In this document: piece by piece, positions 3,505-63,763 of the stretch
Layout of the letters: every line of letters begins with the position of its first letter
Numbering within the stretch: position 1 is the stretch's first letter
Origin: Acidobacteriota bacterium
Lineage (GTDB): Bacteria > Acidobacteriota > UBA6911 > RPQK01 > CBDDCF01
Length of the DNA stretch: 64,000 bases
Assembly: GCA_965225995.1 (NCBI GenBank)
Contig: CBDDCF010000030.1
Coordinates: 36,101-100,100 of the forward strand
Direction: 5' to 3'
Made by a program: the position numbers and the translations under genes
Notes under the pieces: generated by a model
Told to the model about the DNA's origin: nothing
What the model saw: the letters and a program-made list of their open reading frames with translations, nothing else
The model's database searches: none

Positions 3505-3853
3505 TCACCTCTTCCTTTCAACTTGCTTACAGTCGGGTCACTCATTAGGCGGTTTTTGTCAAGAGGAAAAGTGAATCCCTCTTCTGGGCGAACGAATCCC
3601 CTTCGATGGCGCATGCCATCTACGTCAAGTCGTTGGCCATCCTCTTCGTGTAATAGACGGGTTGCGTTGATTCCACTCTTCCCAAGTCGCTTCTCTTCTG
3701 GCAGACTCGAATCCCGTCAATGCTGCGGGCAGGAGAAGAAGACCGATTTCTAGAATCAGCGGTAACCTAAAAGGCGTTAAGACTTCCCAGCGAAAAGCTC
3801 TGGAGCGAACCTATCGGAGAAGGGCTGCCCCCGATCAGGTCATCTCCTATGAA

Positions 3854-5380: not shown

Positions 5381-5437
5381 CCCGGAAAAGACACGCGTTG
5401 TCGGCTGCGATCTAGAATCAGCTCTTGGAGGCGCTGA

Positions 5438-15119: not shown

Positions 15120-15216
15120 TAGCCCGTCCTGTCAACCGCCATTTTAGCCCAAGGGTCTGCGACGTGCGGGCTCATAGGTACCTATTGAGAGCAACTTCTT
15201 TGCAGTAACGCGTGCA

Positions 15217-16545
15217 TTATCCGGGCTTGCCGATGAGCAGGACCTGGATGTCCATAACATTGGTTTGAGTGGGACCGGTTATGATCAGGTCTCCCAGCTG
15301 CTCAAAAAAGTGGAATGAATCGTAGTTGAGCAGGAAATCTGCCGGATCTAGTCCTTGCTCCCTGGCGCGAAGAATCGTGTCGGGAAGTACCTGAGCACCG
15401 GCCGCCTCGGTGGGCCCGTCGATTCCGTCGGTTCCCAGGCTGGCGAAGATGAAGGGGACATTCCAGTCATCGATGAATTGACTGAAAGCCAGTGCCATGT
15501 CTTGGTTGCGTCCTCCCAGGCCGTGTCCCCTAACCACCACGGTGCACTCACCTCCGCTGAGCAAGCAACAAGGAGCCGGAAGCGGGGAATCGTGGGCCAC
15601 GACTTCGCGCGCCAGAGAGGCCAGGAAACCAGCTGCCGCACGGTTATCCCCGGTCAGACTGGAAGTAAGAATCAAGGGTGGATAACCCAGTTTGGCGGCT
15701 TCCTCTGCAGCTGCTTCCAGGGCCGACCGGTTATTTGCCACGATCACGCTCTGCACTCCGTCGAAATGGGGATCCCCTTTCTTGAGTGTCTCCGGCACGA
15801 GACCCTTGTCCCCTTTCTCAAGGTGTTGCCGTACCGATTCCGGAAGCGAGCCGGCGAGATCGTAACGGGTGATGATGCGAAGGCAATCTTGATATGTCGA
15901 AGAGTCGGCAGCAACGGGACCGGACGCTATGCTCGAAAGATCGTCGCCCACGACGTCTGAAACCGCCAGCGTCAGCACCCGGGCTCCATTCAGGGCTTCC
16001 AACAAGCGCCCCCCTTTGCTCCGGCTCAGGTGTTTGCGCAGGGCATTGATCTCCTGGATGCTGGCACCCGAGCGCAACAGAGCTCGGGTAGCAACTTGTT
16101 TGTCTTTCAGCGATACGCTCGGGACAGGGGCTGGAAAGAGAGCCGAGCCCCCTCCCGAGAGGGCCAGTACCAGCAAGTCGTCACTCCGGACTTGTTGGCG
16201 AAGCCACTGTAAAATTCGATTTGCCGCTGCGGCTCCCGCGCGATCAGGTTCGGGATGCCCTGCGGGCCAGATGCGGGTCTTTGACAAGTGTCCCGGGCTC
16301 CCGTGCGGCGCGACGGCCTGGCCACGCTCGAGCCAGGGTCCGAGTAGCCCCTCCAACGCGATTGCCATAGGTACGGCCGCTTTGCCCAGGGCCAGCAACC
16401 AAACCTTTCGGAATCTGTCGAGGTGGATCGTGCCCAGCGGTGTCTCCAATTCGGCCTGCCGGAGTTGGAGCAGGGAACGTAAGCGCCGTCCCGGAGCGGC
16501 CGCCTCAAGAGCTGCCTCCAGGATTCTGTCAAGCGCAGTTCGCAT
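15217..16545 (-). CDS. Glycerate kinase / hydroxypyruvate reductase-like (MOFRL family)
   Basis: DUF4147 N-domain plus MOFRL C-domain (GGECTVVVRGHGLGGRNQD). Confidence 0.8.
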   Translation of the reverse strand: MRTALDRILEAALEAAAPGRRLRSLLQLRQAELETPLGTIHLDRFRKVWLLALGKAAVPMAIALEGLLGPWLERGQAVAPHGSPGHLSKTRIWPAGHPEPDRAGAAAANRILQWLRQQVRSDDLLVLALSGGGSALFPAPVPSVSLKDKQVATRALLRSGASIQEINALRKHLSRSKGGRLLEALNGARVLTLAVSDVVGDDLSSIASGPVAADSSTYQDCLRIITRYDLAGSLPESVRQHLEKGDKGLVPETLKKGDPHFDGVQSVIVANNRSALEAAAEEAAKLGYPPLILTSSLTGDNRAAAGFLASLAREVVAHDSPLPAPCCLLSGGECTVVVRGHGLGGRNQDMALAFSQFIDDWNVPFIFASLGTDGIDGPTEAAGAQVLPDTILRAREQGLDPADFLLNYDSFHFFEQLGDLIITGPTQTNVMDIQVLLIGKPG

Positions 16546-16575
16546 GGATTTTAGGAGTGCATCGCCAGGGTGAGG

Positions 16576-19429: not shown

Positions 19430-20593
19430 GTGCACTGTCCGATAAGTTCCCGATGTTAATAGTGGCCGAGCGATTCGCGAGCATTTTGGACCTTTGCCAG
19501 GATTGAGTCAGCAGTGGCGCGCCACTTGAAGGGCTTGGCCAAGCGTTGATTGTGAACCCGAATATATCTTTTGATTTCCTGTCTCAACTCTTGGACGCTG
19601 CTGAAAGAGTTTCTGTAGATCGAACGGCGCTCCAGCTGTGAGAACCAGCTTTCGACGGCATTGAGCCAGGAGGCGCTAGTGGGCGTAAAGTGGAGGTGGT
19701 ATCGGGGCCGCTGGGCCAGCCAGCTTTGAACCTGCTTGGTCTTATGAGTGCTCGAGTTGTCCAGGATTAAGTGGACATCCAGTTCGGGCTCGACCGCTTG
19801 ATCAATCTGGCGGAGAAAAGCCAGGAACTCCTTGGCTCGGTGCCTATTGGTGATGCGGCCCATGACCTCACCTGTCACCACATCGAATGCGGCATACAGA
19901 CTGGCTGTACCGTGGCGCTTGTAATCGTGTGTCCGGCGTTGGATCTGTCCCGGTCTGAGCTGGAGCATCGGCTGAGTTCTATCCAGAGCCTGGATCTCAG
20001 TTTTCTCGTCCACGGATAGAACCAGCGCATTGTCGGGCGGATCCATATACAGCCCCACCACATCGATTACCTTTTCGGCGAAGTGAGGATCGTTGCTGAT
20101 TTTAAAGTTGCGGACTCGATGCGGCTTCAGGTCGGCTGCCTTCCAGATCTGGGCGACTTGATGTTTGCTCACTCCGGAGTGTTCGGCCATCAGTCGCACA
20201 CTCCAGTAGGTCGATTCCCGTGGGATGCGTTCAACGGTGGCTTTGAGAATAGCTCGCACATTGGCATGCGATAGCTTCCGCGGACGGCCCGATCGAGGTC
20301 GATCCTCCAGTCCTGACACTCCCTGCTCAAGATAGCGCCTGCGCCACATTTGCACACTCATTAGCCGCTTGGAGAGCCTTTCCGCAACTTCAGTCGCCGT
20401 CAGCCCCTGGCCGCAAGCCAGAATTATTTGAGCCCGTTCGGCCAAGACTCGATCGGTCTTGGAAGCCCGCAACCAGGACTCCAGTATTCTTCGATCATGT
20501 TCGGGTAGCTTTAGTCGAATGTGGGGTCTTGCCATGCCCAACAATAGCAAACTACCCTGACAATTAACATCGGTAACTTTCCGGACAGTGCAC
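19430..20593 (-). mobile_element. IS630-family insertion sequence (1164 bp), flanked by TA
   Basis: Imperfect ~31-bp terminal inverted repeats: GTGCACTGTCCGATAAGTTCCCGATGTTAAT at the left end, and the reverse complement of GTGCACTGTCCGGAAAGTTACCGATGTTAAT at the right end. TA at 19428-19429 and 20594-20595. Confidence 0.8.
19456..20535 (-). CDS. IS630-family (Tc1/mariner-like) DDE transposase
   Basis: N-terminal HTH, DDE region (LILDNSSTHKT ... HFTPTSASWLNAVE). Confidence 0.85.
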   Translation of the reverse strand: MARPHIRLKLPEHDRRILESWLRASKTDRVLAERAQIILACGQGLTATEVAERLSKRLMSVQMWRRRYLEQGVSGLEDRPRSGRPRKLSHANVRAILKATVERIPRESTYWSVRLMAEHSGVSKHQVAQIWKAADLKPHRVRNFKISNDPHFAEKVIDVVGLYMDPPDNALVLSVDEKTEIQALDRTQPMLQLRPGQIQRRTHDYKRHGTASLYAAFDVVTGEVMGRITNRHRAKEFLAFLRQIDQAVEPELDVHLILDNSSTHKTKQVQSWLAQRPRYHLHFTPTSASWLNAVESWFSQLERRSIYRNSFSSVQELRQEIKRYIRVHNQRLAKPFKWRATADSILAKVQNARESLGHY

Positions 20594-21587: not shown

Positions 21588-21818
21588 GCCACTCTTAAGG
21601 ATGAACAAAACGTCATTAAAGTCGGGTGATGCACGGCACAAAACTGATTTCTCGGCCAATCGCCAGCAAAAGTATCCTTGAATGTGCTTTGCCACTTGGC
21701 ACCAATTATTCCTTTCGAATCTATCACGAATGGCTTCGAAGGGTAATGGAGTGCGGTAGCGCAAAACTCGGAAATTGGGGATGTAGAGTGCTGATCCTGT
21801 CGTCCAAACCCAGTCAGA

Positions 21819-21866
21819 CCGGATGATCCCGGCCCTGTAGCCGAAAACTTGTGAATGATCCGGGCC
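21819..21866 (+). repeat. MITE-like ~48-bp element, copy A
   Basis: GGATGATCCCGGCCCTGTAGCCGAAAACTTGTGAATGATCCGGGCC. Related copies at 24142, 29816 and 54418 (the last in opposite orientation). Confidence 0.4.
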
Positions 21867-21892
21867 AAATCCCCCATGCTATACTCGCCCCG

Positions 21893-22588: not shown

Positions 22589-23458
22589 TTATTTGCCAGT
22601 TATTTCAGAGTTGATTTCACCCACCAGCCGTGCAACCCAGGCGCGGGATTGATGATTCTGGAAGCGCTCCAGGTAGCGATTGAAGACATCTCGGGCCTTT
22701 TTCTTTTCCCCACCATAGTAGTGAATCCGCCCCGCCAGGATGGCTCCGTCCGGTAGAAATTCGCTTTCCGGAAATCTGTCCTCGAGCTGTCGTGTCAGTT
22801 CGAGAGCCTCTTTCTCGCTTCCCGACGAGGCCCGGGCCAGCGCTGAGTAATAGAGGGCGGCGTCGCTGGCTTGATGTTGATTCTGCGGGTCCTGCGCCAC
22901 TACCGTCGAGAAATAGCGAATAGCCGTCGCAAAGTCGCCCCGGGTCAGGAATTTCTGGCCCAATGAATAATGCGCCTCGACCGCCTCGGGATTTTCAGCC
23001 ACGAGCCTCTGGAGAGCAAGTAGTGAACTGGGGCCATAAAGATAGAAATCGACCTGCTTCTGAAATCTCGAGGGAGCCATGAATCCGGTCAAGCGATCGA
23101 TCTCACGGGCTTCCGAATTCAGGATGAAAATCGTGGGGTAATTGGCCACCCCGTTTTCCTCCCGCAAACGAATGCCGGCCGGATCTTGCTCGGCATTCAG
23201 TTTCACCCACTGAAAGCGCGGACCCATTTCCGCGATCACCGTGGGATCATTGAATGTGTCTCGCTCCATCGCCGCGCAGTAGCCGCACCAGTCTGTATAC
23301 AGGTAGACCAGCAGAGGTTGTCGGCCCTCCGACGCGCGCACGAGCGCCCCCTCGAAGTGGCGCGACCAGGGTAACGAGGGTCGAGCTCCGAGCTGCAGGA
23401 ACACACTCCCGCTGGTTGCCGCGGTAAGCAATAGAATGACTCCCAAGGAACGCTTCAC
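22589..23458 (-). CDS. Thioredoxin-fold protein with C-terminal TPR-like region, secreted
   Basis: Signal peptide. YTDWCGYCAAM motif, with the CxxC (CGYC) centred in a thioredoxin-like domain. Helical TPR-like C-terminus. Confidence 0.6.
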   Translation of the reverse strand: MKRSLGVILLLTAATSGSVFLQLGARPSLPWSRHFEGALVRASEGRQPLLVYLYTDWCGYCAAMERDTFNDPTVIAEMGPRFQWVKLNAEQDPAGIRLREENGVANYPTIFILNSEAREIDRLTGFMAPSRFQKQVDFYLYGPSSLLALQRLVAENPEAVEAHYSLGQKFLTRGDFATAIRYFSTVVAQDPQNQHQASDAALYYSALARASSGSEKEALELTRQLEDRFPESEFLPDGAILAGRIHYYGGEKKKARDVFNRYLERFQNHQSRAWVARLVGEINSEITGK

Positions 23459-24204
23459 TGGGGACTCGCTCCCCGTCTGATGTCGTCGGCAGTTTGGAAC
23501 TCTCCATCCGGCCCAGCCGAACGAAGATCGTAAGTCGCCTCTGAAATCCGATGAAAGTAAAAGCCTCGCGACCAGGGATCGAGCCGGATCACCTGAGTCA
23601 GGTAAAGAGGACTCAGAGCGTCGATCAGTTGCTGGAAGTCTTCGGCTGCGGGCAACTCCCCGTAGCTGGATCGATAGCTCTCAATGGCACTCTGAATGTC
23701 CGCCAGTTGGCGACCTGCTATTTGCTCACGCTGCTGGCTGATCGCGGCCAGAATCACATCCGCCTTTTCCCAACGCCGATCTCCCAGCCTGATTTCTTCC
23801 AGGTGCCAGGACTCCCCCACCCGGCGCAATTTGAGAGCGGTTTGAATCTTCACTTCGGCGATCGCCAGATCGCCACTCTGCTGGACGTCCAGGATCTCGA
23901 TCTCATCTTTCTTGAGTTGGGCATTGTCCAGATTGCGGATACTCTCCTTCATCTGTTGATCCAGATTCTTGCCGCAGCCGGTTACCACCAGAACGAGCAG
24001 GAAGGCTAACCCGCGTAATTCACAAGGTATCGAAGCGAAGGGTCGCAAGCGGCGCGCTGACAAGACTTTACGCCCGAGGGCCGCGCGGGCATAGTCTTGC
24101 ACTCTGCTGAGCAGCCGGAGGGTGGGCAACGCAGTCAGCAGGGATGATAGCGGGCCTGCAGCCGACAATTTGTGAATGATGCGGGCTAAGATTCGGTTCT
24201 GCAT
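23455..24204 (-). CDS. Lipoprotein with type II secretion pseudopilin (GspG)-like C-terminal domain; true start uncertain
   Basis: Lipobox LLVLVVTGC. C-terminal DPWSRGFYF...RSAGPDGEFQTADDI resembles the GspG C-domain. The first ~60 codons of the ORF translate MITE copy D and are probably not coding. Confidence 0.4.
   Translation of the reverse strand: MQNRILARIIHKLSAAGPLSSLLTALPTLRLLSRVQDYARAALGRKVLSARRLRPFASIPCELRGLAFLLVLVVTGCGKNLDQQMKESIRNLDNAQLKKDEIEILDVQQSGDLAIAEVKIQTALKLRRVGESWHLEEIRLGDRRWEKADVILAAISQQREQIAGRQLADIQSAIESYRSSYGELPAAEDFQQLIDALSPLYLTQVIRLDPWSRGFYFHRISEATYDLRSAGPDGEFQTADDIRRGASPQ
24142..24190 (+). repeat. MITE-like element, copy D
   Basis: GGATGATAGCGGGCCTGCAGCCGACAATTTGTGAATGATGCGGGCTAAG. 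Confidence 0.4.
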
Positions 24205-25177: not shown

Positions 25178-25237
25178 GCTAAGAGCCTGTCCGAGTATTG
25201 GTGGCGGATTGCGTACCAGGGTCTCGCCAAGTTTCTT

Positions 25238-25550
25238 TCTTGAATGATCCGGCGCAGCCGGTGGACGGGCTAAGATGACACTTGATTTGTGGGACGAGTA
25301 TGGCACAGGCTTTCTTGGAGTTCTCTCCCTGGATGGCATTGAAGTGGTTTCGGATGTGGGAGGGGCCGTTCCCAGGCCGCGAAAGGGCCGTCAGGCCCGA
25401 CTATGAAGATCTTATTTTATTAAGATCGCCGTCTCAGAAGGCGCCTCCCACGGTTTTGAAACACCGCTTTCCTCCGCGACACCATCCCCCGTTGTGGCTT
25501 CCCGGGAGCTCAAGTTACTTTCCTGAATGATCCGGCCACCGGCCGGGGGA
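25238..25550 (+). repeat. ~265-bp structured repeat, copy 1 (core 25270-25527), flanked by ~35-bp MITE-like direct repeats
   Basis: Core starts CTAAGATGACACTTGATTTGTGGGACG. ~85% identical to 52249-52515. Flanking gaatgatccgg...gggctaa segments lie at 25241-25274 and 25516-25550. Confidence 0.6.
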
Positions 25551-25666
25551 TGGGCTAACCTGAAACTTTCTAAGGCGCTGCAAGCGCTTCCTGGTTTGGG
25601 ATGTCAGAGTTGATGAATGGGGTAGGAAACGAATCCAGGCCGAAAATCGGCTACTATGGGAAACCC

Positions 25667-29483: not shown

Positions 29484-29815
29484 AATTTTTCTTAAGATTT
29501 CTCGGCCGCACACTTGTACGTTGTTCTGCATCTATCATTTCAGACCCGTAGCAAAAACTGAAAACCGGTTTCGATCGATCGCCGTTCCTGCCGATCGAGC
29601 GCCGAATAACAGAGCGCCAAGCGGCAGCGCGAGCGCGGGAAAGCGTGGCGACGATTCGCCGAAACTCCGCTTAAAACCGGGCCAGCGCTTCCGCTTGCGG
29701 TCCCGATATCTTGCGCCTGGCGAATGCACGTCACTGCTGCGCCCTGGGCTTTGCGACTCTGATACCCGCACTTTCGCTCTGATCGGCGCGGCGGTCGATC
29801 TAAATTGACTCTTTT

Positions 29816-29863
29816 CGGATGATCCCGGCCCTGCAGCCGAAAACTCATGACTATCCGGGCTAT
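29816..29863 (+). repeat. MITE-like element, copy B
   Basis: CGGATGATCCCGGCCCTGCAGCCGAAAACTCATGACTATCCGGGCTAT. Confidence 0.4.
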
Positions 29864-30018
29864 GTCTCTGCGATTGCATTTCGTTTGTATCTCGGCGGCC
29901 TCAGCGATGTCAGCTCCTCTTGGTTCCCCGGTGAACCAGTTTGACTCCCTGCACCCGCGCTCACTAAAATCGCGCCGAGAATTGTTTCAGCGAGTCCGTT
30001 CGAGTCACCGGGGATCTG

Positions 30019-31788
30019 ATGTCCGAATACAAGAGCTTTGAAGACCAGCTTGTAAACCGCGAGACTTGGCAACATCGTTGGGGTTTTGCCGATACTCGTT
30101 TTGTCCTCAACCGAGATCGCTCCGTCGAACTCAGCGGAGATCGCTACCCCCTTTGTGGGTACCGCATGTACGATTTTATCCCGTACATCGAGAGCGTTCT
30201 GGATGTGAAACTCGACTTCGACAAACGGCGCCCTGAAGTGGAGCCAAAGCAGGTTTCGCCGACCCGTATCGACGCTGGTTTTGTGCAATCTCTCGAGAGT
30301 TTTCTGCGCTCCGATCAGATCACTACCGAGGACTCGGTCCGGCTTCAGCACAGTCATGGCCAGACGACTGCCGACGAAGTCTTCCGAGTTCTTTTCGGCC
30401 ACATCGATCGGGTTGTGGATCTGGTGGTCTTCCCAGAATCTCAAGATGAGGCTGTCGCGGTTGTTCGGCAGGCGGCGGAGTCAGGAGTTTGTTTGGTCCC
30501 TTTTGGAGGCGGCACCAGCGTGAGCAGTGCGTTGAAGCTCCCGCAGGCTGATTCGCGCTCGATGGTTGCGATCGATACGCGGCGCATGAACCAGATTGAG
30601 TGGATCGATCGGGAGAATCTGCAAGCCTGTGTACAGGCCGGTATGACAGGTCTCGAAATGGAGGCCGCCCTGGCTCGCGAGGGTCTGACTTCAGGTCACG
30701 AACCCGACAGCATGGAACTCTCCACAGTCGGGGGATGGATTGCCACCAACGCCAGCGGGATGAAGAAGAACCGCTACGGCAATATCGAGGATATTGTCGA
30801 GAACATCTCGATGATCACACCGGTCGGACTGGTTGAGCAGAAATTGCCGATTTCCCGGGCTTCAATCGGGATTCAGCCTCTCAATCTACTTTTTGGGAGT
30901 GAAGGGAATCTGGGCCTCATCACACGTGCCGTGCTCAAAGTCCATCCGTTACCTGGAGTGAAGAAGTACGGTTCTCTGGTGTTCCCAAGCTTTGAGAATG
31001 GCGTGGATTTTCTGAACGAACTGGTCTACACCGCTTACGTGCCAGCCAGTATTCGTCTGGTCGATAACATTCAATTTCGCTTCGGGCAGGCCCTCAAGCC
31101 GAGGGCAGAGGGCGGCAAGGCGTTTTTGGATCGTCTGAAGAAGCTCTATCTCCTCAAGCTCAAGGGCTTCGATCCAGACAAGCTGGCAGCCGCCACGATT
31201 GTCATGGAAGGCAGTCGCCATGAGGTGGAGTTCCAGGAGTCGAGCATCTACCGGTTGGCGAAACGGTTTCAAGGACTGCGGGGTGGGTCTGAGAACGGGC
31301 GCCGTGGCTACATGCTGACCTATGCGATTGCTTATATCCGCGATTTTCTGGCCGATTTTCACATCGTCGGAGAAACCTTCGAGACCAGTGTTCCCTGGAA
31401 CAAGATTGATGAAGTATGTCAGGCAGTGCGGAGAAGGGCCGACGAGCTGCATCGGCAACATGGCTTGCCGGGACGCTGCTACGTTTCGCATCGTGTGACC
31501 CAGATCTACCACAGCGGGGTCTGTGTTTACTTCATGTTCGGTTTCTATGTGGGCGGAGTGGAAGATCCGGAGGAGGTTTTTGCACGAATTGAACACAGTC
31601 TACGGGAAACTATTATCGAAAACGGTGGTTCGGTGTCACACCATCATGGGGTAGGGAAGATTCGTAAGGACTTCATGCGGGACACACTCAGCCCGGCGAG
31701 CATCGAAATCCTCAAGAACCTGAAAAGGTCGAGCGATCCGGCCAACATCTTTGGGATTCGGAACAATATCTTTGCCGAGGAAGAATAG
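30019..31788 (+). CDS. Alkyldihydroxyacetonephosphate synthase-like FAD-linked oxidase (AGPS family)
   Basis: FAD_binding_4 region (VVFPESQDEAVAVVRQAAESGVCLVPFGGGTS) and FAD-oxidase C-domain. The N-terminal extension and HHHGVGK C-terminal motif are typical of alkyl-DHAP synthases. Confidence 0.7.
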   Translation: MSEYKSFEDQLVNRETWQHRWGFADTRFVLNRDRSVELSGDRYPLCGYRMYDFIPYIESVLDVKLDFDKRRPEVEPKQVSPTRIDAGFVQSLESFLRSDQITTEDSVRLQHSHGQTTADEVFRVLFGHIDRVVDLVVFPESQDEAVAVVRQAAESGVCLVPFGGGTSVSSALKLPQADSRSMVAIDTRRMNQIEWIDRENLQACVQAGMTGLEMEAALAREGLTSGHEPDSMELSTVGGWIATNASGMKKNRYGNIEDIVENISMITPVGLVEQKLPISRASIGIQPLNLLFGSEGNLGLITRAVLKVHPLPGVKKYGSLVFPSFENGVDFLNELVYTAYVPASIRLVDNIQFRFGQALKPRAEGGKAFLDRLKKLYLLKLKGFDPDKLAAATIVMEGSRHEVEFQESSIYRLAKRFQGLRGGSENGRRGYMLTYAIAYIRDFLADFHIVGETFETSVPWNKIDEVCQAVRRRADELHRQHGLPGRCYVSHRVTQIYHSGVCVYFMFGFYVGGVEDPEEVFARIEHSLRETIIENGGSVSHHHGVGKIRKDFMRDTLSPASIEILKNLKRSSDPANIFGIRNNIFAEEE

Positions 31789-31809
31789 AGTACTGAACGA
31801 GGAGCCGAC

Positions 31810-32661
31810 TTGCGAGGGAAAAAGGCAATTCTGACGGGAGCTTCTACCGGATTGGGGCGAGTCCTGGCTCTCCACTTGGCCGAGCAGGGAGTTTCAATCG
31901 TGCTTGCCGCGCGCCGCCGGGACGCTCTTGATGAACTGGCCCAAGTGATCCGGGATCGGGGAGGAAAGGCGCGCGCCGTTGTGACCGATGTCTCGCTGGC
32001 GGAGGATTGCCAATCTTTGGTTAAGCAGGCGATCGACTGGCTCGGTGGTGTCGACTATCTGGTCTTGAACGCCGGAGTCAGCATGTGGGCCAGGCTGGAA
32101 GACATCTCCGATGTCTCGATCTTCGAACGGGTCATGGCGACTAACTATCTGGGTGTCGTCTACTGTGTTCACGCTGCCTTGCCCTACCTGATCGACAGCC
32201 AAGGCTTGATCGTGACGGTTTCTTCTACGCAGGCCGTCCTGGGAATGCCTCACCATACCGGTTACACTGCCTCCAAGCACGCCGTGAAAGGATTTCTGGA
32301 AGCTCTGGAATTCGAGATGGATGGTCGCATCCAGCTGTTGAACGTGATGCCTGGCTGGATTCGCGGGACTGAAATGAGAGCCCACGCTTTCGTGGGCGAC
32401 GGCACGGAGACCGGATCGACACGGCGGCACAGCAGCGAATCCGTCTCGGTTGAAGAGTGTTCCGAGGCGATTATTGGGGCCATCAAGTCAGGTCAACGAG
32501 AACTCTTCATTCCCGCCAAGCTGCGGACAGTCCCTTGGCTCAAACTGCTGGCTCCCGGCTGGCTGCGTCGCAAGATTCGTCGCGTCGTCGCGGCCCAGCC
32601 GGAATCCAAGGACCGTCGTCGCAGGCGCAAGAAGAAAGTTAGAAGAAAGCAGGAGATTTGA
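31810..32661 (+). CDS. Short-chain dehydrogenase/reductase (SDR) with basic C-terminal tail
   Basis: TGASTGLGR Rossmann motif, NAG, and YTASK active site. C-terminal RRRRKKKVRRKQEI tail. Confidence 0.7.
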   Translation: MRGKKAILTGASTGLGRVLALHLAEQGVSIVLAARRRDALDELAQVIRDRGGKARAVVTDVSLAEDCQSLVKQAIDWLGGVDYLVLNAGVSMWARLEDISDVSIFERVMATNYLGVVYCVHAALPYLIDSQGLIVTVSSTQAVLGMPHHTGYTASKHAVKGFLEALEFEMDGRIQLLNVMPGWIRGTEMRAHAFVGDGTETGSTRRHSSESVSVEECSEAIIGAIKSGQRELFIPAKLRTVPWLKLLAPGWLRRKIRRVVAAQPESKDRRRRRKKKVRRKQEI

Positions 32662-32678
32662 TTTTGAAGAGACTCTAG

Positions 32679-33131
32679 ATTGGAGACAATGCTCCCGACT
32701 TTGAAGCAGAGACGGATCAGGGAGGCACGATTCGCTTGAGCGACTATCGCGGCAAGAAAGTTGTATTGTATTTCTATCCCAAAGACGATACCAGTGGCTG
32801 TACCCGGCAGGCCTGTGCCCTGCGTGACGACCACCCCCACATTGAAGCCGCCAAAGCCGTGGTCTTGGGTGTTAGTCCCGACAGCCGGAGCTCGCACGAA
32901 AAGTTTCGGCAGAAACACGAGCTCCCGTTCACCCTGCTGGTGGACAGCGATCATGCAATCGCTGAGGCCTATGCCACCTGGGGTGAGAAGTCGATGTATG
33001 GCCGGAAGTATATGGGGATCATCCGCAGCCAGTTCACCATCGATGAGCGGGGCAAGCTAATCGACGTTCAGTACAAGGTCAGTCCGGCCAAGAGTGCACC
33101 GCTGGTATTGAAATCGTTGCAGGTCGGATAA
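32679..33131 (+). CDS. bcp: Peroxiredoxin Bcp/PrxQ; conserved N-terminus encoded upstream of the first canonical start (TTG at 32736), implying an ATT start at 32679 or a sequence error
   Basis: IGDNAPDFEAETDQGGTIRLSDYRGKKVVLYFYPKDDTSGCTRQAC. An in-frame TAG lies immediately upstream of the ATT codon. Confidence 0.7.
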   Translation: MGDNAPDFEAETDQGGTIRLSDYRGKKVVLYFYPKDDTSGCTRQACALRDDHPHIEAAKAVVLGVSPDSRSSHEKFRQKHELPFTLLVDSDHAIAEAYATWGEKSMYGRKYMGIIRSQFTIDERGKLIDVQYKVSPAKSAPLVLKSLQVG

Positions 33132-33184
33132 GGCAGCGTTTTCGAAGCGATGGGCCGGAAGCGCTGCGCTGATAAGGAGGGGTC

Positions 33185-34834
33185 ATGAAGAATCGATCTT
33201 TGTCGTTGGTTTTACTCGGTTGTGGAATGTCATTGGCAGTGGCCCAAAGGGCTCCTCAGATAGATCGGATCACAGCGGATGATCTGAAAGCGGATCTTTA
33301 CTTCCTGGGCTCAGACGAAATGGCGGGTCGCCTGACCAATACGCCGGAGAATCGTCTGGCCGCCCAGTTCATTAAATCTCGCTTCGAGGCCTTCGGGTTA
33401 GAGCCGGTTAATGGATCCTACTTCCAATCCTACTTTCTGATGACATTTCAGTTGGGAACCGAGAATCGTTTGGAGATTCGCAGCAAGGGACTGAGTCTGC
33501 AAAAGCAATTGATGAGCGATTTCGTTCCCCTTAATTTTTCGGCCACCGGCTCAGCTCAGGGGGAGTTGGTTTTCGTCGGTTTTGGCATTGATGCTCCCGG
33601 ATTTTCCCAATCCGACTACCAAGGTGACGTGCGTGGCAAGATCGTTTTAGTGATGCAGCATGAGCCGGGTGAGAATGATCCGGATAGTCGGTTCGATGGA
33701 TTAGTCTCGTCGGAAGCTTCGCGTGACATTCGAAAAGCGCTCTGGGCGCAGAAGCATGGCGCCATTGGCATTGTCTTCGTCCCAGACGTTCACAACCACG
33801 GGGAGGGGGCTAACTTCGAACGTCGGGCCTCCCGTGTCTGGCCGACCCAAAGACGAAGAATTCCCCGTTTTGCGTTGGCATCCTGGGTAGAGAAAGTGCA
33901 GATTCCAGCGGTTTCCGTGTCGACCGAATTGGCCGAACATCTGATTAGCGGCAGTGGACACTCCTTACGAGACCTGGGATTCAGGGCGGAAAACGACGGA
34001 GGGATGTCTCCGCTACCCGTTCCCGGATATCAGATTCGGATCGAGACCGAGGTAGGGCGGACCAAGATCCAGGATCGTAATGTGGTCGGATTCCTCCCCG
34101 GTTCCGATCCGGAATTGAAGGATGAAGTGATCATCTTGTGTGCCCACTACGATCATGACGGGGCAAGCGAAACTCAGGTATACAACGGAGCGGATGATGA
34201 TGGCTCAGGCACGGTGGGATTGATTTCTCTGGCCCAAGCCTACAGCGCAGCCGCTCGGGCCGGTCAGCGACCGCGCCGCTCGCTGCTGTTTGCCGCCTGG
34301 AACTCCGAGGAACGGGGCCTGCTTGGGGCTTGGACTTACACCGAGAATCCTTTGTTTCCACTACAGCGTACCGCGGCCGTGTTCAACATGGACATGATCG
34401 GCCGCAACGAAGAAGTTCCTGCCGGTGGAGGTCGCCGTTTTCGGGGCTTGGAGCCTCAGACTGCAGAATCGAACAACAACGCCGTCAATGTGATGGGCTA
34501 TACGTTCAACCGCGAACTCCGAGCGATGGCTGAGAAAACCGGGAGTGAGATGGGTCTCACTCTTCGCTTTCGCTACGACAATAACCCGTCGAATTTGTTG
34601 CGTCGCAGCGATCATTGGCCTTTTCTTCAGAGAGGGGTTCCGGCTCTCTTCTTCCATACCGGGCTGCACCCTGACTATCACCCTCCTAACGATCGCCCCG
34701 AGCGCATCAACTATCCCAAGATGGAGAAGATCCTGCGGGTCATTTATCAGTTAACCTGGGAGGTCGCAGATCGGGATGGGCTCGTCGAATTCCATCGGCC
34801 TGTTCTCGAGACTCGGGGCCACATAGAAGAGTAG
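33185..34834 (+). CDS. M28-family aminopeptidase with PA domain, secreted
   Basis: Signal peptide plus M28 zinc-ligand motifs (HYDH, DDDGSG, EERGLLG, HTGLHPDYH). Confidence 0.75.
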   Translation: MKNRSLSLVLLGCGMSLAVAQRAPQIDRITADDLKADLYFLGSDEMAGRLTNTPENRLAAQFIKSRFEAFGLEPVNGSYFQSYFLMTFQLGTENRLEIRSKGLSLQKQLMSDFVPLNFSATGSAQGELVFVGFGIDAPGFSQSDYQGDVRGKIVLVMQHEPGENDPDSRFDGLVSSEASRDIRKALWAQKHGAIGIVFVPDVHNHGEGANFERRASRVWPTQRRRIPRFALASWVEKVQIPAVSVSTELAEHLISGSGHSLRDLGFRAENDGGMSPLPVPGYQIRIETEVGRTKIQDRNVVGFLPGSDPELKDEVIILCAHYDHDGASETQVYNGADDDGSGTVGLISLAQAYSAAARAGQRPRRSLLFAAWNSEERGLLGAWTYTENPLFPLQRTAAVFNMDMIGRNEEVPAGGGRRFRGLEPQTAESNNNAVNVMGYTFNRELRAMAEKTGSEMGLTLRFRYDNNPSNLLRRSDHWPFLQRGVPALFFHTGLHPDYHPPNDRPERINYPKMEKILRVIYQLTWEVADRDGLVEFHRPVLETRGHIEE

Positions 34835-48675: not shown

Positions 48676-49156
48676 GGGCTGAAGGCTCTGTCATGGGAGG
48701 CTGTTGCCGAACTCGGGGTGAGCTTGTGGTGGTTTTCCGGCGCAACGGGTCTTGGGAATCGAGGGATGTGAACTACCGACGGTTTCAGGCCGGATACCAA
48801 AGCGGCAGCTCAATTTCATAGAGAATCGTCTAGTTTTCGTCAGCGATTCCGCTGCAGCACCAAATCGGCTCGCCGATTTGGAGTGCGCCTAGGAGCCTGT
48901 CCGAGTATTGGGGTGCGGTTGCGAACAGGGGTCTTGTGAGTCGAGCCGCTTTGGTATCCGGCTGAGCGTCGTGATCTTGAGTAGTCCAATAGTCCGGCAA
49001 TAGATGCCATGGCTACAGCGCCAAGGTACCGGCGGCGCGAGAATGTACAAGTCCAGCTGCTGTCGGCTGCCCAACCGGCTTCATCTGTCGCTGTTAACTA
49101 TAGTGTCTATCGATATAGCTTAGTAATCCATAGTCTTGCGTTCTGGAGAGCTTTCT

Positions 49157-53937: not shown

Positions 53938-54417
53938 GAGGTTGTCCATGATTTCCCGCAACTGGAGAATTCGATGTGGTCCTTGGCGGGCATTGGATGA
54001 GCAATGCGGATACCTTCGGCCTGGCCGTTGGACCCTGGGCCGCGCTGCGCTCCGCGGCTCTGATAGGGTGCCCGGAAGCTCAGTTGGAGTCGATCAGCGG
54101 AGCCTGTAATTGGAACGCTGATTCTCAGAGCCCCGAGCCCGCGAGGGGTATCGGATGCCCGCTCCTTGCTCCAGAGAGACGATTTGCTAATGCTTTCCTC
54201 TCCCAAGTCCAACTCGCCCTGGGCTGATTCGGAAGGGCAAAGGCACGGGGGAGCAGCCGACAAGGCTGCAATCCAGCTGGTGAGAGTCCAGCCGTGTGAA
54301 TTACTCGTTCACACACGTATCGATGCCGCTGCTCGGGGCAGGTAACCAACCGAGATTTGCGTGGTGTAAACGGCCTGGCCGTCCTTCAAAAGAAGCGGCG
54401 GGAGCAACCTGGAGGTC

Positions 54418-54468
54418 TAGCCCGGATAATGCACGAGTTTTCGGCTGCAGGGCCGGGATCATCCGCTC
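54418..54468 (-). repeat. MITE-like element, copy C (reverse orientation)
   Basis: CTAGCCCGGATAATGCACGAGTTTTCGGCTGCAGGGCCGGGATCATCCG. The first 20 nt resemble the IS1380-like terminal repeat at 58598 (CTAGCCCGGATTATGCAAGA). Confidence 0.4.
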
Positions 54469-55132
54469 TGACTGCGTTACCCACCCTCGGGCTCCTCGAC
54501 AGAGGGCACGACTATGACTGCAGCCCGGAAATGTGCCCCCCTGGTGAAGTTGCAGAGTTGGGGATGTGTGGTGAGCCGAACGTCTCCCGTGTCACGTAAG
54601 GCCGGAGTGTCTTGGGAAGCAACGAGTAGCCGGAGGAAAGGTCATGGTCGCCAACCGGACTTGGGAAATCCGACCGTTCCGGATGAAACGGGGGGCTTGC
54701 GGAAACGTGAGCAATGGTGGAACTAGGAACCCGCCGCACAACCGAAAGGGTGCGGGTCGGAAACTCTCCACCTAAGGCTACGCGCGTCGTACTGCTATCC
54801 CAACCAGGGGTTGCCCGTCTGAGGGGAGCCCTTGCCAATATGAACTTGATGCCATGTGCTCAGTTCATAAAGTGGCGTAAACCACTGATGATTTCATAGT
54901 TCTCTCCCTTCGGACATCAGGGATCCTACCTGGCAACCCTCCAGAATACGGCAACGGAACGTGGGAGCTCTTCCAGTTTCTTTCCTGAATGAGCCGAGGG
55001 AACCTCGGAAGCACTGCTAGTACTTTGAAAGCCGGAACCCGAATGTTATAAAAACGATATAGATCGACCGCCGGTGCTTTGCTTCGAGCGCTGAACAACA
55101 GAGCTCGTCAGCGGCCCTTGGGAGTTATTACA

Positions 55133-58597: not shown

Positions 58598-60252
58598 CTA
58601 GCCCGGATTATGCAAGAACCGTAGGCCGGAGTTGAAAAGAGAGTCGAAAGTGGCCTAAATCGGGAGATCGAAGGTGCGACAGGCGGATTTTCGAGGGATC
58701 TCTGTGGACGAGCCGTGTGGAGTAGGTGGGGGAGTGAATTTCAGACGGAGTTGGGCCTGAATGAGTGTCCTAAACGATCATTCGGGAGCTAGGAGAGGCT
58801 AGCTGGAGTTAAGGCGATTCAAGACGAGGAGGAAAAGGGCCTGCTCCGGAAAGCCGGAGGAAAGATGGGCCCAGATGCGTCGAGTGGTTTGTCGAACCCG
58901 CGCCCCAATTTTGAGGACCCGGCGACGCAAAGTTTCGATTTCGAGTTTCTGCCAGGGGGTTCCATACAGATAATCGCGGAGTCGGACGAACATCTGGTAA
59001 GCCAGCCCATGCAGGAGAAGTCGAAACTGGTTGGCCAGGAATCGATGACAGCTCAGCCGATCCATACTCAGATGGTTCTTAAAAGCCTTGATGAAGTTCT
59101 CCGACTGTCCTCGATCGGTGTAGTGATCATAAAGGGACTGGGAAGAGAGATCGTCTCGGTTGGTGACCACAAAGCGACGATTGATCCCCCGATGGTCGAC
59201 TTCCACTTTGACGATGACGCGACGGAATCGATCCCAGCTGCTGGCTCGATAAAGAAACTCGTCAAACTGACGCTGTTTTTCCTCGAACTCGTCGAACCTG
59301 AGTCGAGTCGACTCGAGCATCGGCTCGACCATCCGTTGCCGGCGGGGGTTCCGGCTTAACCCAATGACATATTGGAGTTTGTTCTCTTCAGATTCACAGA
59401 ACTCGTAGAGCCGAGGCGTGGCAAAGCCGCTGTCGGCCCGGATCTCAATTTGAAGTTCCTTGCCAACTTCTCGTCGAATGGCTTTCACGATTCGTTTCAG
59501 AATAGGAACGATGTGAGAGGCAGCCCCCTTGTTTCCAGGCCTCAATACGACAGTGACCAGGTCCCCCGTAACGGCATCGAAGATCAGCCAAGGATGCAGA
59601 ATGTGGTTTCGGTAATAGCCGTGGTAAAAAGAGAATTCCTGTTGGCCGTGAGTGTGGTCGTCAGTACTGTCCAGGTCCAAGATGACCGGGTCGGGGCGTC
59701 TCTTCTTCAGCGAGCGGACATAACGCTGTAGGAACCCCCGGCTCAGACGCATGAGATCCTTCTTGCTGACAGAGTTTTCCAAACGGGAAAAAGTTGCCTG
59801 GGTGGCCAAGTCAGGATCGCTCTCAGGTAACTGATCACAGACGGTCTTGAGCATGGGATCCGAGCGCAGCGTGTCCGCGTCATTGCAGTCTTCGTACCCG
59901 GCAACGATCTGAAAGACTCGTTGTCGGATCAGCTGTAACTGCTCATGACGAACGTAGCGTTGGTCCCGGCTATCCGCAATACACGAACTGAAGTCCTCGC
60001 AGAGTCGATCTTGCCGATCCAGGGAACCAAACAACAGCCATCCGGCATCGGAAGTCAGGTTCCCACCATCAAAACGAGCCGTGATTTGTGTGTGCGAGTG
60101 AAATGCCAGGGTGGTCTGACAGACTGGGTTTGACATTGCCGTAGTTCTCCGATAAGGATTTGTTTAATAAACCCTTTTATATCAGAGAGATACGGCATTT
60201 TTTCTGGTCCCCAATCCACTCGAATCCGGATCTCTTGCATAATCCGGGCTAG
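58598..60252 (-). mobile_element. IS1380/IS4-like insertion sequence (1655 bp) with perfect 20-bp terminal inverted repeats
   Basis: CTAGCCCGGATTATGCAAGA at 58598-58617 and its exact reverse complement at 60233-60252. If CTAG is the target duplication, the TIR is the 16 bp beginning with CC. Confidence 0.75.
58799..60136 (-). CDS. DDE transposase (IS1380/IS4-like, DDE_Tnp_1)
   Basis: 445 aa; DLDSTDDHTHG and DSGF acidic motifs. Confidence 0.75.
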   Translation of the reverse strand: MSNPVCQTTLAFHSHTQITARFDGGNLTSDAGWLLFGSLDRQDRLCEDFSSCIADSRDQRYVRHEQLQLIRQRVFQIVAGYEDCNDADTLRSDPMLKTVCDQLPESDPDLATQATFSRLENSVSKKDLMRLSRGFLQRYVRSLKKRRPDPVILDLDSTDDHTHGQQEFSFYHGYYRNHILHPWLIFDAVTGDLVTVVLRPGNKGAASHIVPILKRIVKAIRREVGKELQIEIRADSGFATPRLYEFCESEENKLQYVIGLSRNPRRQRMVEPMLESTRLRFDEFEEKQRQFDEFLYRASSWDRFRRVIVKVEVDHRGINRRFVVTNRDDLSSQSLYDHYTDRGQSENFIKAFKNHLSMDRLSCHRFLANQFRLLLHGLAYQMFVRLRDYLYGTPWQKLEIETLRRRVLKIGARVRQTTRRIWAHLSSGFPEQALFLLVLNRLNSS

Positions 60253-60706: not shown

Positions 60707-61480
60707 TCATTTCTTTTCTCCTCGCTTCTTGGTCGACTTCTCCCGTTGTTGACGTTCGTAGAGGCGATAGCTCTTGCCTCGAATGAAGGTCACCTCCGAA
60801 ACGTGTAGAAAACGATCCAGCAGCGCAGAGGTGGCCGCCGTGTCTCCTCCCAGCATCGCTCCCCAGTCCTCGAGTGGTCGGTTCGAACTGATAATGGTCG
60901 AGGTCTTCTGGTAGCGGCGATGCAGGATCTCCAGCAGATCTTCAGCCGCCGAGTCGGGCACTCTCCGAAGTCCCAGATCCTCGATGATCAGCAGCGGGAT
61001 CCGGGTCATCTCTGCAATGTAGGGTCGGCGCATCCCGGTGGCAGTGGCTTCAGCGATGTCCTCGAGCAGATCGAAAGCCGACTTGTACTGTACCCGGTGA
61101 CCCGCTTCCACAGCCTTGATTGCCACCGTGATGATCAGATGTGTTTTGCCGACTCCCGCCTGACCGATGACCAACCAGCCGCGACACTGTTCGATGAATC
61201 GGCAAGTGGCCAGATCAAAGATCTGCTGCCGATTGATCGAGGTGTTGAAAGAGAACCTGAAGTCCTCCAAGAGTTTGCGTTCCGGGAACTGGGCCTGGCG
61301 GAGACATCGCTCCAGCAAACGGTCGCGCCGGCGGGTGAGTTCGTCGTCGATGAGCAGCTCAAAGAACTCCTGATGAGAGAGACGGCCCTGGATGGCTTGT
61401 TGCAGCCGTACGTCAAAGACCTGGGCCAGGCCCGAGAGCCTGAGGTGGCGAAGTTTCCGTTCCAGTTCCAATGAGATCAT
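60707..61480 (-). CDS. istB: IS21-family helper ATPase IstB
   Basis: Walker A GQAGVGKTHL, Walker B LLIIEDLG. Confidence 0.9.
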   Translation of the reverse strand: MISLELERKLRHLRLSGLAQVFDVRLQQAIQGRLSHQEFFELLIDDELTRRRDRLLERCLRQAQFPERKLLEDFRFSFNTSINRQQIFDLATCRFIEQCRGWLVIGQAGVGKTHLIITVAIKAVEAGHRVQYKSAFDLLEDIAEATATGMRRPYIAEMTRIPLLIIEDLGLRRVPDSAAEDLLEILHRRYQKTSTIISSNRPLEDWGAMLGGDTAATSALLDRFLHVSEVTFIRGKSYRLYERQQREKSTKKRGEKK

Positions 61481-62973
61481 TCCGGGTCTCCTGAGCGGGG
61501 AGTGAGTTGGTACTCAGACAGCGGCCGAATCAACTCGTGGTCGGAGGTGAATAGAGAGCGTTGCGGCACGTCTAGTCGCTTGCATAAAGCCACCAGGGTC
61601 CGATAGCGGAAGGCATCGTGAGAGAGAGCCTTGGCACAGGCTTCATTGACGACCGTGGCCGGGTAGCGTCGGGTCAAAGAGATCATGCCTCTCAGGAGCC
61701 GGTAGGCCAACACGTCGCGCACCTCCAGGGCTCGCACTGCCCAGCGGTGAGCATCAGAGCCAATCCTGCGGGCTTGCCCGAGCAGCTGACTCTCAGTTCG
61801 ATAATGAGCGTAGCGTTTGCGTTCCGGAAGATGTGTGGGTTCGGTCTGGAACTGGCCGGGTTTCCGCTTGGGATGCAGGACGACTTGCTGCTCTCGGAAA
61901 AAGACTCGGACGATCCGGTCATCCCAGTGCACAGCCACTTCACAGCCAAGCAGATGATTGGGTACCGAGTAGAAGGCTCGATCGACTTCGATGTGGCCAT
62001 CCACGGAGACCGTGCGACGGCCGGTACGGAAGAAACTGAAGCGGGAGTCGGGTAGAGGTCGAAGACCCTTCTGTTCCTCCAGGAATCGGGGCCAGACCTG
62101 CTGTTTGGTGGTGCCGTGGATGCGCTGTCGGGCGACCCGCTCGTTCCAGTTCCGTAGATGCTCATTCTGCTCGGCCAGACTCTCGAACCGTCTGCCCTTC
62201 AGGGCACTGGACTTTGTATATCCGATCGTCCTTTCGACTTTTCCATTCTCATTTGGAGAGCCAGGATGGATGGGAATGATGGCAAAACTATAGTGACGGC
62301 CCAGCGCACTGAAAACGGCGTTGATCTCGGGATCGACAAAGCAGGCTCGCGTGACTCCGGCCTTCAGGTTATCCAAGCGAACCACGTCTACCGAGCCACC
62401 AAACCAGTGGAAGGCATTCTCGACACAACGGACGAAGGTCTCCAGATCCTGCCGCCAGACGACCTCCTCATACGAGTGGCGGGAATAACACAGCACTGCC
62501 TTGAACAGGTGGGGGCGACGGTACCGGCCCGATTCGGTTTGTGTCAGAGCTGCTTTGCCAAAGTCCACCTGCATGTCCCGACCGGGTGGAGTTTCCACCC
62601 GAGCGAAGACTCGTGGACTCTCGGCTTTGAGCTTTCTGCAAAACCGTTTGACGGAGTTATACGCTCCATCGAAGCCATGCTCCAAAACCAGGTCTTGCCA
62701 GATCCGCTTGGCATGCAACCCCAGCTCAAGCTTCTTCTGGATTTCCTCCCGAAAAGGCTCACACGAGCTGCGCCGACCCGGGGGCCGCTTTGGCCGCTTT
62801 TGCTCACCCGAGCCGGGGGCCACTTTGGCCGGTTTTGAATCTCGGGCCGGATCATGTCGGGCTACAGTCTCTCGACGAACTCCTGTTTCTCGCTCGATCC
62901 GCCGATACGACCAGCCCAGCTTCAATAGCGCCACAACCGTTTGTTTCTTCTCCATTTTCAGTACATTGACCAT
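61477..62973 (-). CDS. istA: IS21-family transposase IstA
   Basis: HTH + DDE integrase core, 498 aa, 4-bp overlap with istB. Confidence 0.9.
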   Translation of the reverse strand: MVNVLKMEKKQTVVALLKLGWSYRRIERETGVRRETVARHDPARDSKPAKVAPGSGEQKRPKRPPGRRSSCEPFREEIQKKLELGLHAKRIWQDLVLEHGFDGAYNSVKRFCRKLKAESPRVFARVETPPGRDMQVDFGKAALTQTESGRYRRPHLFKAVLCYSRHSYEEVVWRQDLETFVRCVENAFHWFGGSVDVVRLDNLKAGVTRACFVDPEINAVFSALGRHYSFAIIPIHPGSPNENGKVERTIGYTKSSALKGRRFESLAEQNEHLRNWNERVARQRIHGTTKQQVWPRFLEEQKGLRPLPDSRFSFFRTGRRTVSVDGHIEVDRAFYSVPNHLLGCEVAVHWDDRIVRVFFREQQVVLHPKRKPGQFQTEPTHLPERKRYAHYRTESQLLGQARRIGSDAHRWAVRALEVRDVLAYRLLRGMISLTRRYPATVVNEACAKALSHDAFRYRTLVALCKRLDVPQRSLFTSDHELIRPLSEYQLTPRSGDPE

Positions 62974-63653: not shown

Positions 63654-63763
63654 TGGGCACCGACAACGAGGCCAAGTGGCAATCAGTTTCCAGTTTCGGA
63701 GACTTGACTCGGCTGTAAGCAAGTTGCAAGGGAGAGGTGCCTAGGACCTGTTATCATTCGGCT

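Follow-up and report, generated by a model that had tools for sequence, protein, structure and literature searches.

A miniature inverted-repeat transposable element with IS1380-like ends, and its truncated copies, in an uncultured soil Acidobacteriota lineage

A 64,000-nucleotide stretch of an Acidobacteriota genome assembly (GCA_965225995.1, contig CBDDCF010000030.1, positions 36,101 to 100,100 of the forward strand; the window hereafter) carries a short dispersed repeat, which had been proposed from the sequence alone to be a family of ~50-bp MITEs (miniature inverted-repeat transposable elements) with ends like those of a resident IS1380-like insertion sequence (IS). The 50-base repeat is real and far above chance, but it is the left arm of a 176- or 180-bp element, and its partner is the right arm, not the 50-mer itself. 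The family is very probably a MITE. Transposition would be supplied in trans by a transposase of the IS1380 clade to which the window IS belongs, recognizing the terminal ~16 bp; most window copies would be left-arm remnants that lost their right part through later deletion, and the family would be explicable without a role in the host. We put the probability of this reading as a whole at roughly 75%. The repeat is selfish DNA of an ordinary kind.

Repeat copies in the window

The exact 48-mer consensus was located at 54417-54464 on the plus strand; the window held no second site at up to 3 mismatches, and shuffled sequences held none. A profile was built from the four claimed copies and run over the window with nhmmer. 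It matched at 54406-54474 (plus), 21811-21878, 24132-24200 and 29808-29874 (all minus), with E = 1e-19 to 1e-22, and more weakly at 5375-5408, 15207-15227, 24003-24032 and both IS ends, while shuffled sequence gave zero matches. The four copies were thus present within a few bases of where they had been placed, with the strand labels swapped relative to the consensus as written. Both of the fragments that had been listed near 15205 and at 25238-25274 also exist (15207-15225 and 25238-25274); the latter is one of the ~45-nt IS-end-like repeats described below and no piece of the 176-bp MITE. Two further pieces, a left-end copy (5381-5422) and an internal fragment (33136-33177), were not in the original list. 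In total the 64 kb hold 7 MITE copies or fragments (Table 1). The 5381-5422 fragment lies inside the 57-bp spacer of two same-strand open reading frames (ORFs).

Structure of the complete element

When the copies were aligned together with their flanks, homology continued beyond the 50-mer: CTGACTG.GTT was common to three copies, and ~55 more bases were common to the 24142 and 54417 copies. A unit of ~50 bp did not hold, as homology extends to 101 nt at 54421-54521 and to 176 nt at 24010-24185. On contigs of the metagenome Ga0310123, profile matches occurred in inverted pairs ~130-190 bp apart. The full-length set comprised 14 copies: 1 from the window, 10 from the related metagenome species and 3 from other contigs of the same or closely related strains. 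Flanks of these 14 copies were unrelated, and homology started and stopped sharply at the terminal repeats.

The complete element measures 176 or 180 bp, the two lengths differing by one 4-bp indel. Its start (CCCGCATAATGCACGCGTGGTCG) and end (CGACAACGCGTGAATTATGCGGG) pair as inverted repeats of roughly 23 bp; it begins with CCCG(G/C)ATAAT(G/T)CACG and finishes with the reverse complement of the same, the exact end motif being written CCCG(G/C)ATAATGCACG. Left and right arms pair imperfectly over ~55 nt, giving a long imperfect palindrome. The complete window copy folded end to end (z about -3.4 to -3.5, the value with DNA parameters being -3.5), and six full copies folded as RNA gave end-to-end hairpins (z = -3.4 to -8.5). 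Folded as RNA by themselves, the 50-mers did not exceed shuffled sequence (z -0.5 to -1.8), and their predicted structures disagreed between copies. The second terminus of the supposed short unit, GGATGATCCCGGCCC, had been described as a degenerate inverted copy of the first; it is internal (positions 33-45) and resembles the end in direct orientation only. As GGGCCGGGATCATCC it agrees with the end at 9-10/13 positions, in that same direct orientation, a likeness that we estimate to be within chance for an element this long.

The element contains no transposase gene; 2 of its 6 frames are open and would encode a low-complexity peptide of ~58 aa. Rfam covariance models at gathering score, run on both strands of the window, gave no match, and a known structured RNA was rejected on that basis. 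A tRNA scan returned nothing, and no promoter- or terminator-like site was found by scanning around the full copy.

Target-site duplications

The two flanking 4-mers were identical in 10 of the 14 full-length copies and agreed at 3 of 4 positions in the remaining four. Permutation of the right flanks gave an expectation of 3.6 matches on average (P = 5e-5 for at least 10), so that the target duplications anticipated by the original prediction are present in the full-length copies. The 4-bp targets were CTAG, CTAA, TTAG and CAAG (YTAR-like). Being palindromic, CTAG taken alone might simply continue the inverted repeat. Of the matching pairs, however, five are not palindromes, and these were all direct (CTAA/CTAA twice, TTAG/TTAG twice, CAAG/CAAG once), with none inverted; the 4-mers are therefore duplications and not an extension of the terminal repeats.

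The complete window copy has TTAG on both sides (24186-24189 and 24006-24009) with sharp homology boundaries. Among the short window copies, no matching 4-mer was found at the right boundary of any. CTAG directly precedes the 54421-54521 copy (54417-54420), of which the right half is missing, and the flank of the 29816-29859 copy is ATAG (the plus strand reads CTAT at 29860-29863). The window contains 60 CTAG sites where its base composition would give 240, a four-fold depletion. CTAA, TTAG and TTAA are depleted to a similar degree, each of the four tetranucleotides lying about 3.7-4-fold below expectation over the whole window. All of the mobile elements examined use such depleted sites for insertion. 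Since each insertion remakes the target at both borders, this may explain the nested repeat clusters in the related species.

The resident IS1380-family element

The resident IS belongs to the IS1380 family. Its ends are present as previously described, at 58598 and 60252: CTAG followed by CCCGGATTATGCAAGA runs from 58598, and TCTTGCATAATCCGGG followed by CTAG runs to 60252, the flanking CTAG copies occupying 58598-58601 and 60249-60252. Compared with the IS1380-family transposases of sequenced plasmids, its transposase stays below 40% identity in every case, and it falls among near-identical clusters of 60, 381 and 1723 members in soil assemblies. IS copies differ between strains, and the IS is therefore active. 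In the sister-strain contig L003 a further copy of this IS has CTAA on both sides at a spot where the window has a single CTAA, which directly shows the 4-bp duplication at a YTAR site; that IS copy is itself interrupted, at about 15140-16690, by a nested IS1182-family element (439-aa transposase, ends GAGTCTGCGCGGCAGG).

The ends of the MITE were compared with those of the window IS and of three IS relatives (80-84% amino acid identity), which read CCCGAATCATTCAAGA; CCCGGAT(T/A)ATTC(G/A)A(A/G)A; and CCCGGATTATGCGAGA at one end with CCCGCATCATGCAAGA at the other. Agreement was 10-15/16 terminal positions overall and 12-13/16 for the window IS itself. Positions 5, 8 and 11, at which the MITE subfamilies A and B (below) differ from the IS, vary among the IS ends too, and the terminal 16 nt of the MITE lie inside the spread of end sequences of this IS clade. 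Other resident elements end differently, namely the IS1182-family element with GAGTCTGCGCGGCAGG and a second IS1380-type IS, in the related species contig L020, with CCCCAAAACAAG. A 17/20 match between one MITE terminus and the IS end had been reported; the 54417 copy scores 18/20, but four of the 20 positions are the flanking CTAG and not part of the element.

Table 1. Coordinates, strand and evidence for the MITE copies and associated features. Positions refer to the window unless a contig is named.
Feature	Coordinates	Strand	Details
Complete MITE, the only one in the window	24010..24185	-	176 bp; model positions 2-176; nhmmer E 7.5e-53
Left 101 nt of subfamily-B MITE (index copy of the original prediction)	54421..54521	+	model positions 2-101; E 7.9e-23
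Truncated left end, subfamily-B MITE	21807..21864	-	model positions 1-58
Truncated left end, subfamily-B MITE	29816..29859	-	~44 nt; model positions 6-45
Degenerate left-end fragment	5381..5422	+	E 2e-5; TTAG before it at 5377-5380
Solo terminal repeat	15207..15225	-	19 nt, CCCGGATAATGCACGCGTT; flank CAAG
Internal right-arm fragment, without terminus	33136..33177	-	42 nt; model positions 121-162; E 4e-6
Full-length subfamily-B copy	L025 9993-10168		flanks CTAG/CTAG
Full-length subfamily-B copy	L026 13387-13566		flanks CTAA/CTAA
Full-length subfamily-B copy	L041 10029-10204		flanks CTAG/CTAG
IS1380-family IS	58602..60248	-	1647 bp; 16-bp perfect terminal repeats CCCGGATTATGCAAGA
IS transposase	58799..60136	-	445 aa; NF033539 374 bits (cut-off 180); PF13701 466 bits
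Unoccupied CTAA	25570..25573	.	occupied by an IS copy in sister-strain contig L003
T2SSG/GspG-like lipoprotein gene	23455..24204	-	signal-peptide region holds the in-frame MITE
Second MITE-like family, ~89-93 bp	63656-63744, partial 3500-3540; L012 1828-1916, 2506-2591; L007 2136-2223		
Second MITE-like family, further copies	L013 2591-2679; L014 3488-3577; L016 2038-2125; L019 110-203; L020 19847-19934		
GAGCCTGTCCGAGTATTGGTG(G)CGGAT repeat	about 25180-25230, 48889-48937; L025 from 10173; L013 2798-2846; L016 about 2859-2902		

Subfamilies and distribution

Contrary to what a family confined to the window would give, copies were found on Ga0310123 contigs and on related-strain contigs; the family is multi-copy and lineage-restricted. 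A degenerate 24-mer matched 15 contigs, all in that one JGI metagenome; against one-genome-per-species representatives it gave a single match, in a metagenome-assembled genome (MAG) of a Methanocrinis archaeon, which was taken as chance. With the peptide of the MITE open frame as query against a protein collection, 19 small predicted ORFs were recovered on other contigs, one of them from an NCBI MAG labeled Acidobacteriota; three of these loci (L025, L026 and L041) yielded full-length copies. Proteins identical to those of the window occur on ENA/NCBI long-read contigs of up to 7.44 Mb, and the nearest named homologues (42-46% identity) are labeled Acidobacteriota; the host is an uncultured soil lineage of that phylum. 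The Ga0310123 organism is a relative: its contig L016 aligns to window 31138-33832 at 78-80% nucleotide identity.

Two subfamilies were distinguished. Subfamily B (CCCGGAT..., GAGTTTTCGG or GCGTTGTCGG, CCGGGATCATCC) is found in the window's species, the short window copies included, and subfamily A (CCCGCAT..., GCGTGGTCGG, CCGTTATCATCC) is the Ga0310123 type, abundant in the related metagenome species, whose orthologous genes show ~80% nucleotide identity. Identity was 90-98% among A copies (mean 94%), 91% between the two B copies compared (L025 and L026) and 86% between A and B. The complete window copy is nearest to subfamily A (83% identity to A copies, 80% to B copies). Over its 101 nt the 54421-54521 copy shares 97% identity with the beginning of the full-length L026 copy, and the solo repeat at 15207-15225 has exactly the terminal sequence of the L025 full-length subfamily-B copy. 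The greater uniformity of the A copies suggests more recent activity in the Ga0310123 species, and the MITE in the window's species looks older and quieter than the IS. In the related species represented by L020, an nhmmer search at E < 0.01 found no MITE in the syntenic 20 kb.

Truncated copies and alternative origins

Five remnants keep the left end, with right boundaries at ~42, 44, 58, 101 and 115; the last is a further left-end copy carried by L026, which stops at position 115. The ribA locus indicates how one of them may have arisen. In L020 the SLT gene and ribA are separated by an M20 peptidase gene that is absent from the window (window 21654-21806 compared with L020 17610-19081), where only the 19 nt preceding the M20 start codon remain (21717-21735), beside the broken end of the MITE. 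The broken side of the 21807-21864 copy faces this gap. Its intact terminus abuts the conserved ribA promoter region, and the flank of the 21864 terminus (CCAA shared) is present in L020 without the element. The short copies are read as deletion remnants. A decayed continuation of the 21807 copy, itself internally deleted, may reach about position 100 of the element, possibly as far as about 21783 in the window. Three endpoints would then fall near 100-115, just past the center of the palindrome, and may reflect hairpin-related breakage, a conjecture from very few cases. The GTG at 21851 that had been suspected of falsely extending ribA is indeed spurious, the ribA start being at 21893.

Other origins for the short copies were weighed against deletion. 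A free-standing ~50-bp MITE, in which CTAGCCCGGATAATGCA and GGATGATCCCGGCCC would be the two termini and inverted copies of the IS end, would account for the 48-mer common to four copies, and the 29816-29859 and 5381-5422 copies do stop near position 45. In other copies homology goes on to position 58, 101 or 176, the right boundaries of the short copies have no 4-bp duplication, the 50-mer has no fold, the second 'end' matches in direct orientation only and at chance level, and full-length 176/180-bp copies of the same subfamily occur in the same or closely related strains; a self-contained short MITE is almost certainly the wrong description. One-ended transposition, in which the left end and a surrogate right end would carry variable adjacent DNA, is known in IS1380-family members (PMC9330008), being documented for ISEcp1 and ISPme1 (PMC9330008, PMC3281130), and five left-end remnants with variable right boundaries are what it would leave. 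For the 54417 and 29816 copies, however, no repeat of the left-flank 4-mer beside IS-end-like sequence was found within 2 kb downstream, and the 21807 break coincides with a gene absence seen against a relative, which deletion fits better, so we consider a one-ended origin unlikely.

The left arm could also be a host regulatory element (a promoter, an operator, a 5'-untranslated-region RNA or a selected palindrome resembling the repetitive extragenic palindromic, REP, sequences) rather than a transposon remnant. The copies occupy intergenic 5' regions, left arms are commoner than right arms among the remnants, and the 21864 terminus falls roughly at the position expected for a -35 box, upstream of ribA's conserved TATACT. 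The neighbor genes are, however, unrelated (SLT, ribA, GspG-like, FAD oxidase, DUF885) and the orientation to them is inconsistent. The element is also absent from the syntenic region of the related species, the short form does not by itself fold stably, and neither an Rfam family at threshold in the window nor a promoter- or terminator-like site around the full copy supports such a role. Terminal repeats and target duplications suffice without a function, and we judge regulation to be quite improbable.

Evidence for and against the IS1380 clade as partner

The family is small (well under 600 bp), non-coding and bounded by terminal repeats and duplications, with dispersed copies in unrelated flanks and IS-like ends, as is characteristic of a MITE. 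Its description as a non-autonomous miniature element with IS1380-related ends stands as regards the shared ends, the further copies and the 4-bp duplications; the anatomy had been wrong, and the copies cited include one complete element only, the other three being truncated left ends. From the similarity of the ends and the shared target, trans-mobilization by an IS1380-clade transposase appears most likely, and this particular clade is probably the mobilizing partner.

Several observations weigh against this. The similarity of MITE and IS beyond the terminal 16 nt is no better than in shuffles, so the MITE is not a recent internal-deletion derivative of the resident IS, an origin that was considered and ruled out. 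Positions 14-16 consistently differ (CACG in the MITE, CAAGA in the IS), and the true partner may be an unsampled relative of this IS. For the Ga0310123 species an IS with the exact subfamily-A ends CCCGCATAATGCAC was sought and no exact partner was found; the homologues came from other JGI samples, the L038 right end being CCCGCATCATGCAAGA. The co-resident IS1182-family element duplicates CTAG too, and the target alone is therefore not diagnostic of the transposase. Furthermore, no clean pre-insertion site was recovered for any full-length MITE copy. The comparison of strains that had been proposed covered 3-6 strain contigs for each locus and gave no MITE presence/absence difference, whereas copies of the IS do vary; nothing in those contigs pointed to a MITE that is now active in the window's species.

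In-frame insertion in a GspG-like gene

The complete window copy lies within a T2SSG/GspG-like lipoprotein gene. Together with one TTAG it forms an insert of 180 bp, 60 codons in a stop-free frame, between the codons for MQNRIL and AFLLVLVVTGC; when MITE and one TTAG are deleted from 23455..24204, the product (MQNRILAFLLVLVVTGC / MQNRILAFLLVLVVTGCGK) has a regular lipoprotein signal peptide. Most of 40 homologues have 174-216 aa and no insert. The N-terminus of this ORF had been regarded as a spurious extension. Its ATG and the 40 nt upstream are conserved in the orthologues of two related species; this is therefore the ancestral start, and the element was inserted in frame.

In the Ga0310123 orthologue (P0031, locus L024), an open in-frame insert of 51 codons sits at the same nucleotide, plus or minus one; it is decayed, and its end-to-end alignment to the MITE is in reversed orientation (score 69 vs 32). 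L020 has only ~14 nt resembling the terminal repeat, in frame, and the junction shows GGTG microhomology. No clean empty site was obtained for the 24185 copy, L020 having the ~14-nt repeat-like sequence and the JGI species the reversed, decayed copy. Two origins fit equally: an ancient insertion followed by inversion in one lineage and by deletion in another, or separate insertions into one rare target. The frame is kept open in all three species, which is suggestive of translation through the insert; chance survival of an open frame is near 5% per lineage by a rough estimate, and the open frame is therefore not strong evidence. That the insert is translated and retained as a 60-codon coding sequence between the start codon and the hydrophobic core of the signal peptide may be entertained, though we think it doubtful.

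Neighboring repeats and mobile elements

A second family, MITE-like and ~89-93 bp long, has the ends TAGGCACC... and ...GGTGCCTA, with CTAG or TAG at its borders. Its copies in the related metagenome species frequently adjoin the main MITE at a common CTAG, which suggests nested insertion into a duplicated target. A short repeat, GAGCCTGTCCGAGTATTGGTG(G)CGGAT..., stands right after CTAA or CTAG beside MITE copies in several loci and is probably the end of yet another element. A ~45-nt repeat of the form AGTTnCnTTCyTGAATGATCCGGC-(GC-rich palindrome)-GGGCTAA was seen at window 25226-25274 and 25509-25560 and at about 11737-11790 of L020; it looks like the right end of the IS1380 clade (compare ACGGTTCTTGAATGATTCGGG followed by CTAA) plus an inserted palindrome of 14-17 nt.

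The 57-bp window spacer at 33118-33175, which holds the 42-nt MITE fragment, corresponds to 905 bp in the related metagenome species (L016 2030-2935), where the spacer between the orthologous genes contains at least 3 different small repeats. In L029 and L030 (from 13431) the right terminal repeat of a subfamily-B MITE is broken and followed by a gene with reverse-transcriptase (RVT_1) and group II intron maturase (GIIM) domains (13595-14908); the same MITE is intact in the three contigs L026-L028, and we take the break to mark the insertion of a group II intron. With the nested IS1182-family element duplicating CTAG as well, this rare target serves at least two IS families of the genome. The window also carries an IS630-family transposase (19456-20550; NF033545, 281 bits) and an IS21-type pair (60707-62973; an IstB-like ATPase and an rve/Mu-transposase-C protein) immediately beside the IS1380-family element.

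Comparison with known systems

REPs are associated with a RAYT gene and are not known to make a target duplication. They are 20-40 bp palindromes of GTAG- and CGTC-tagged super-families, and their mobilization is by RAYT transposases (PMC3733652). The present family resembles REPs and bacterial interspersed mosaic elements (BIMEs) as short intergenic repeats of palindromic character. A REP/BIME assignment was rejected: the element is 176-180 bp long, starts with CCCG, has 4-bp duplications and IS1380-type ends, and the 50-mer forms no stable hairpin.

Rickettsia palindromic elements (RPEs) are inserted in frame in protein genes. The insert of 180 bp / 60 codons in the GspG-like signal-peptide region is like them a palindromic repeat, in frame and stop-free; unlike RPEs it is a single such case, and it has clear terminal repeats, target duplications and a candidate transposase.

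Members of the IS1380 family measure about 1.6-2 kb and have terminal repeats of about 15 bp and duplications of 4-5 bp. The window IS resembles other members (IS1380, IS1247, ISPme1, ISEcp1) in its 1647 bp, 16-bp terminal repeats, 4-bp duplication and NF033539 score (374 bits); IS1247 has 1672 bp, inverted repeats of 16/13 and a direct repeat of 5 (PMC3281130). The MITE shares the end motif of this IS1380 clade and the 4-bp YTAR duplication, and encodes nothing. One-ended transposition, which is typical of ISEcp1 and ISPme1, was sought for the 54417 and 29816 copies and not found.

A closer parallel in kind is MITEPye1 of Paracoccus yeei, a MITE related to IS1182-family ends (PMC11578231). 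Both are small, have no transposase gene, IS-like terminal inverted repeats and flanking direct repeats, form a long stem-loop, are mostly intergenic, and are argued to be mobilized in trans by the same kind of inference (PMC11578231). MITEPye1 differs in its partner family, which here is probably IS1380. The present host also belongs to an uncultured Acidobacteriota lineage, and only the terminal 16 nt are common to the IS; the copy number appears higher.

Significance

General understanding of transposons is unchanged by these findings. The family ties a MITE to the IS1380 family, for which no published MITE was found: full-text searches of the literature yielded none attributed to it (ISfinder was not covered), so that novelty here means absence from the searchable literature and not proof. 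Several mobile elements compete for one four-fold depleted tetranucleotide. If the insert in the GspG-like gene is translated, an RPE-like transposon would have become part of a secretion signal, or the source of a new internal start. MITEs and their remnants give false ORFs and false N-terminal extensions in MAGs, at least 19 small predicted 'proteins' being MITE-derived; they also mark rearrangement points, and a consensus model of the element would tidy annotation.

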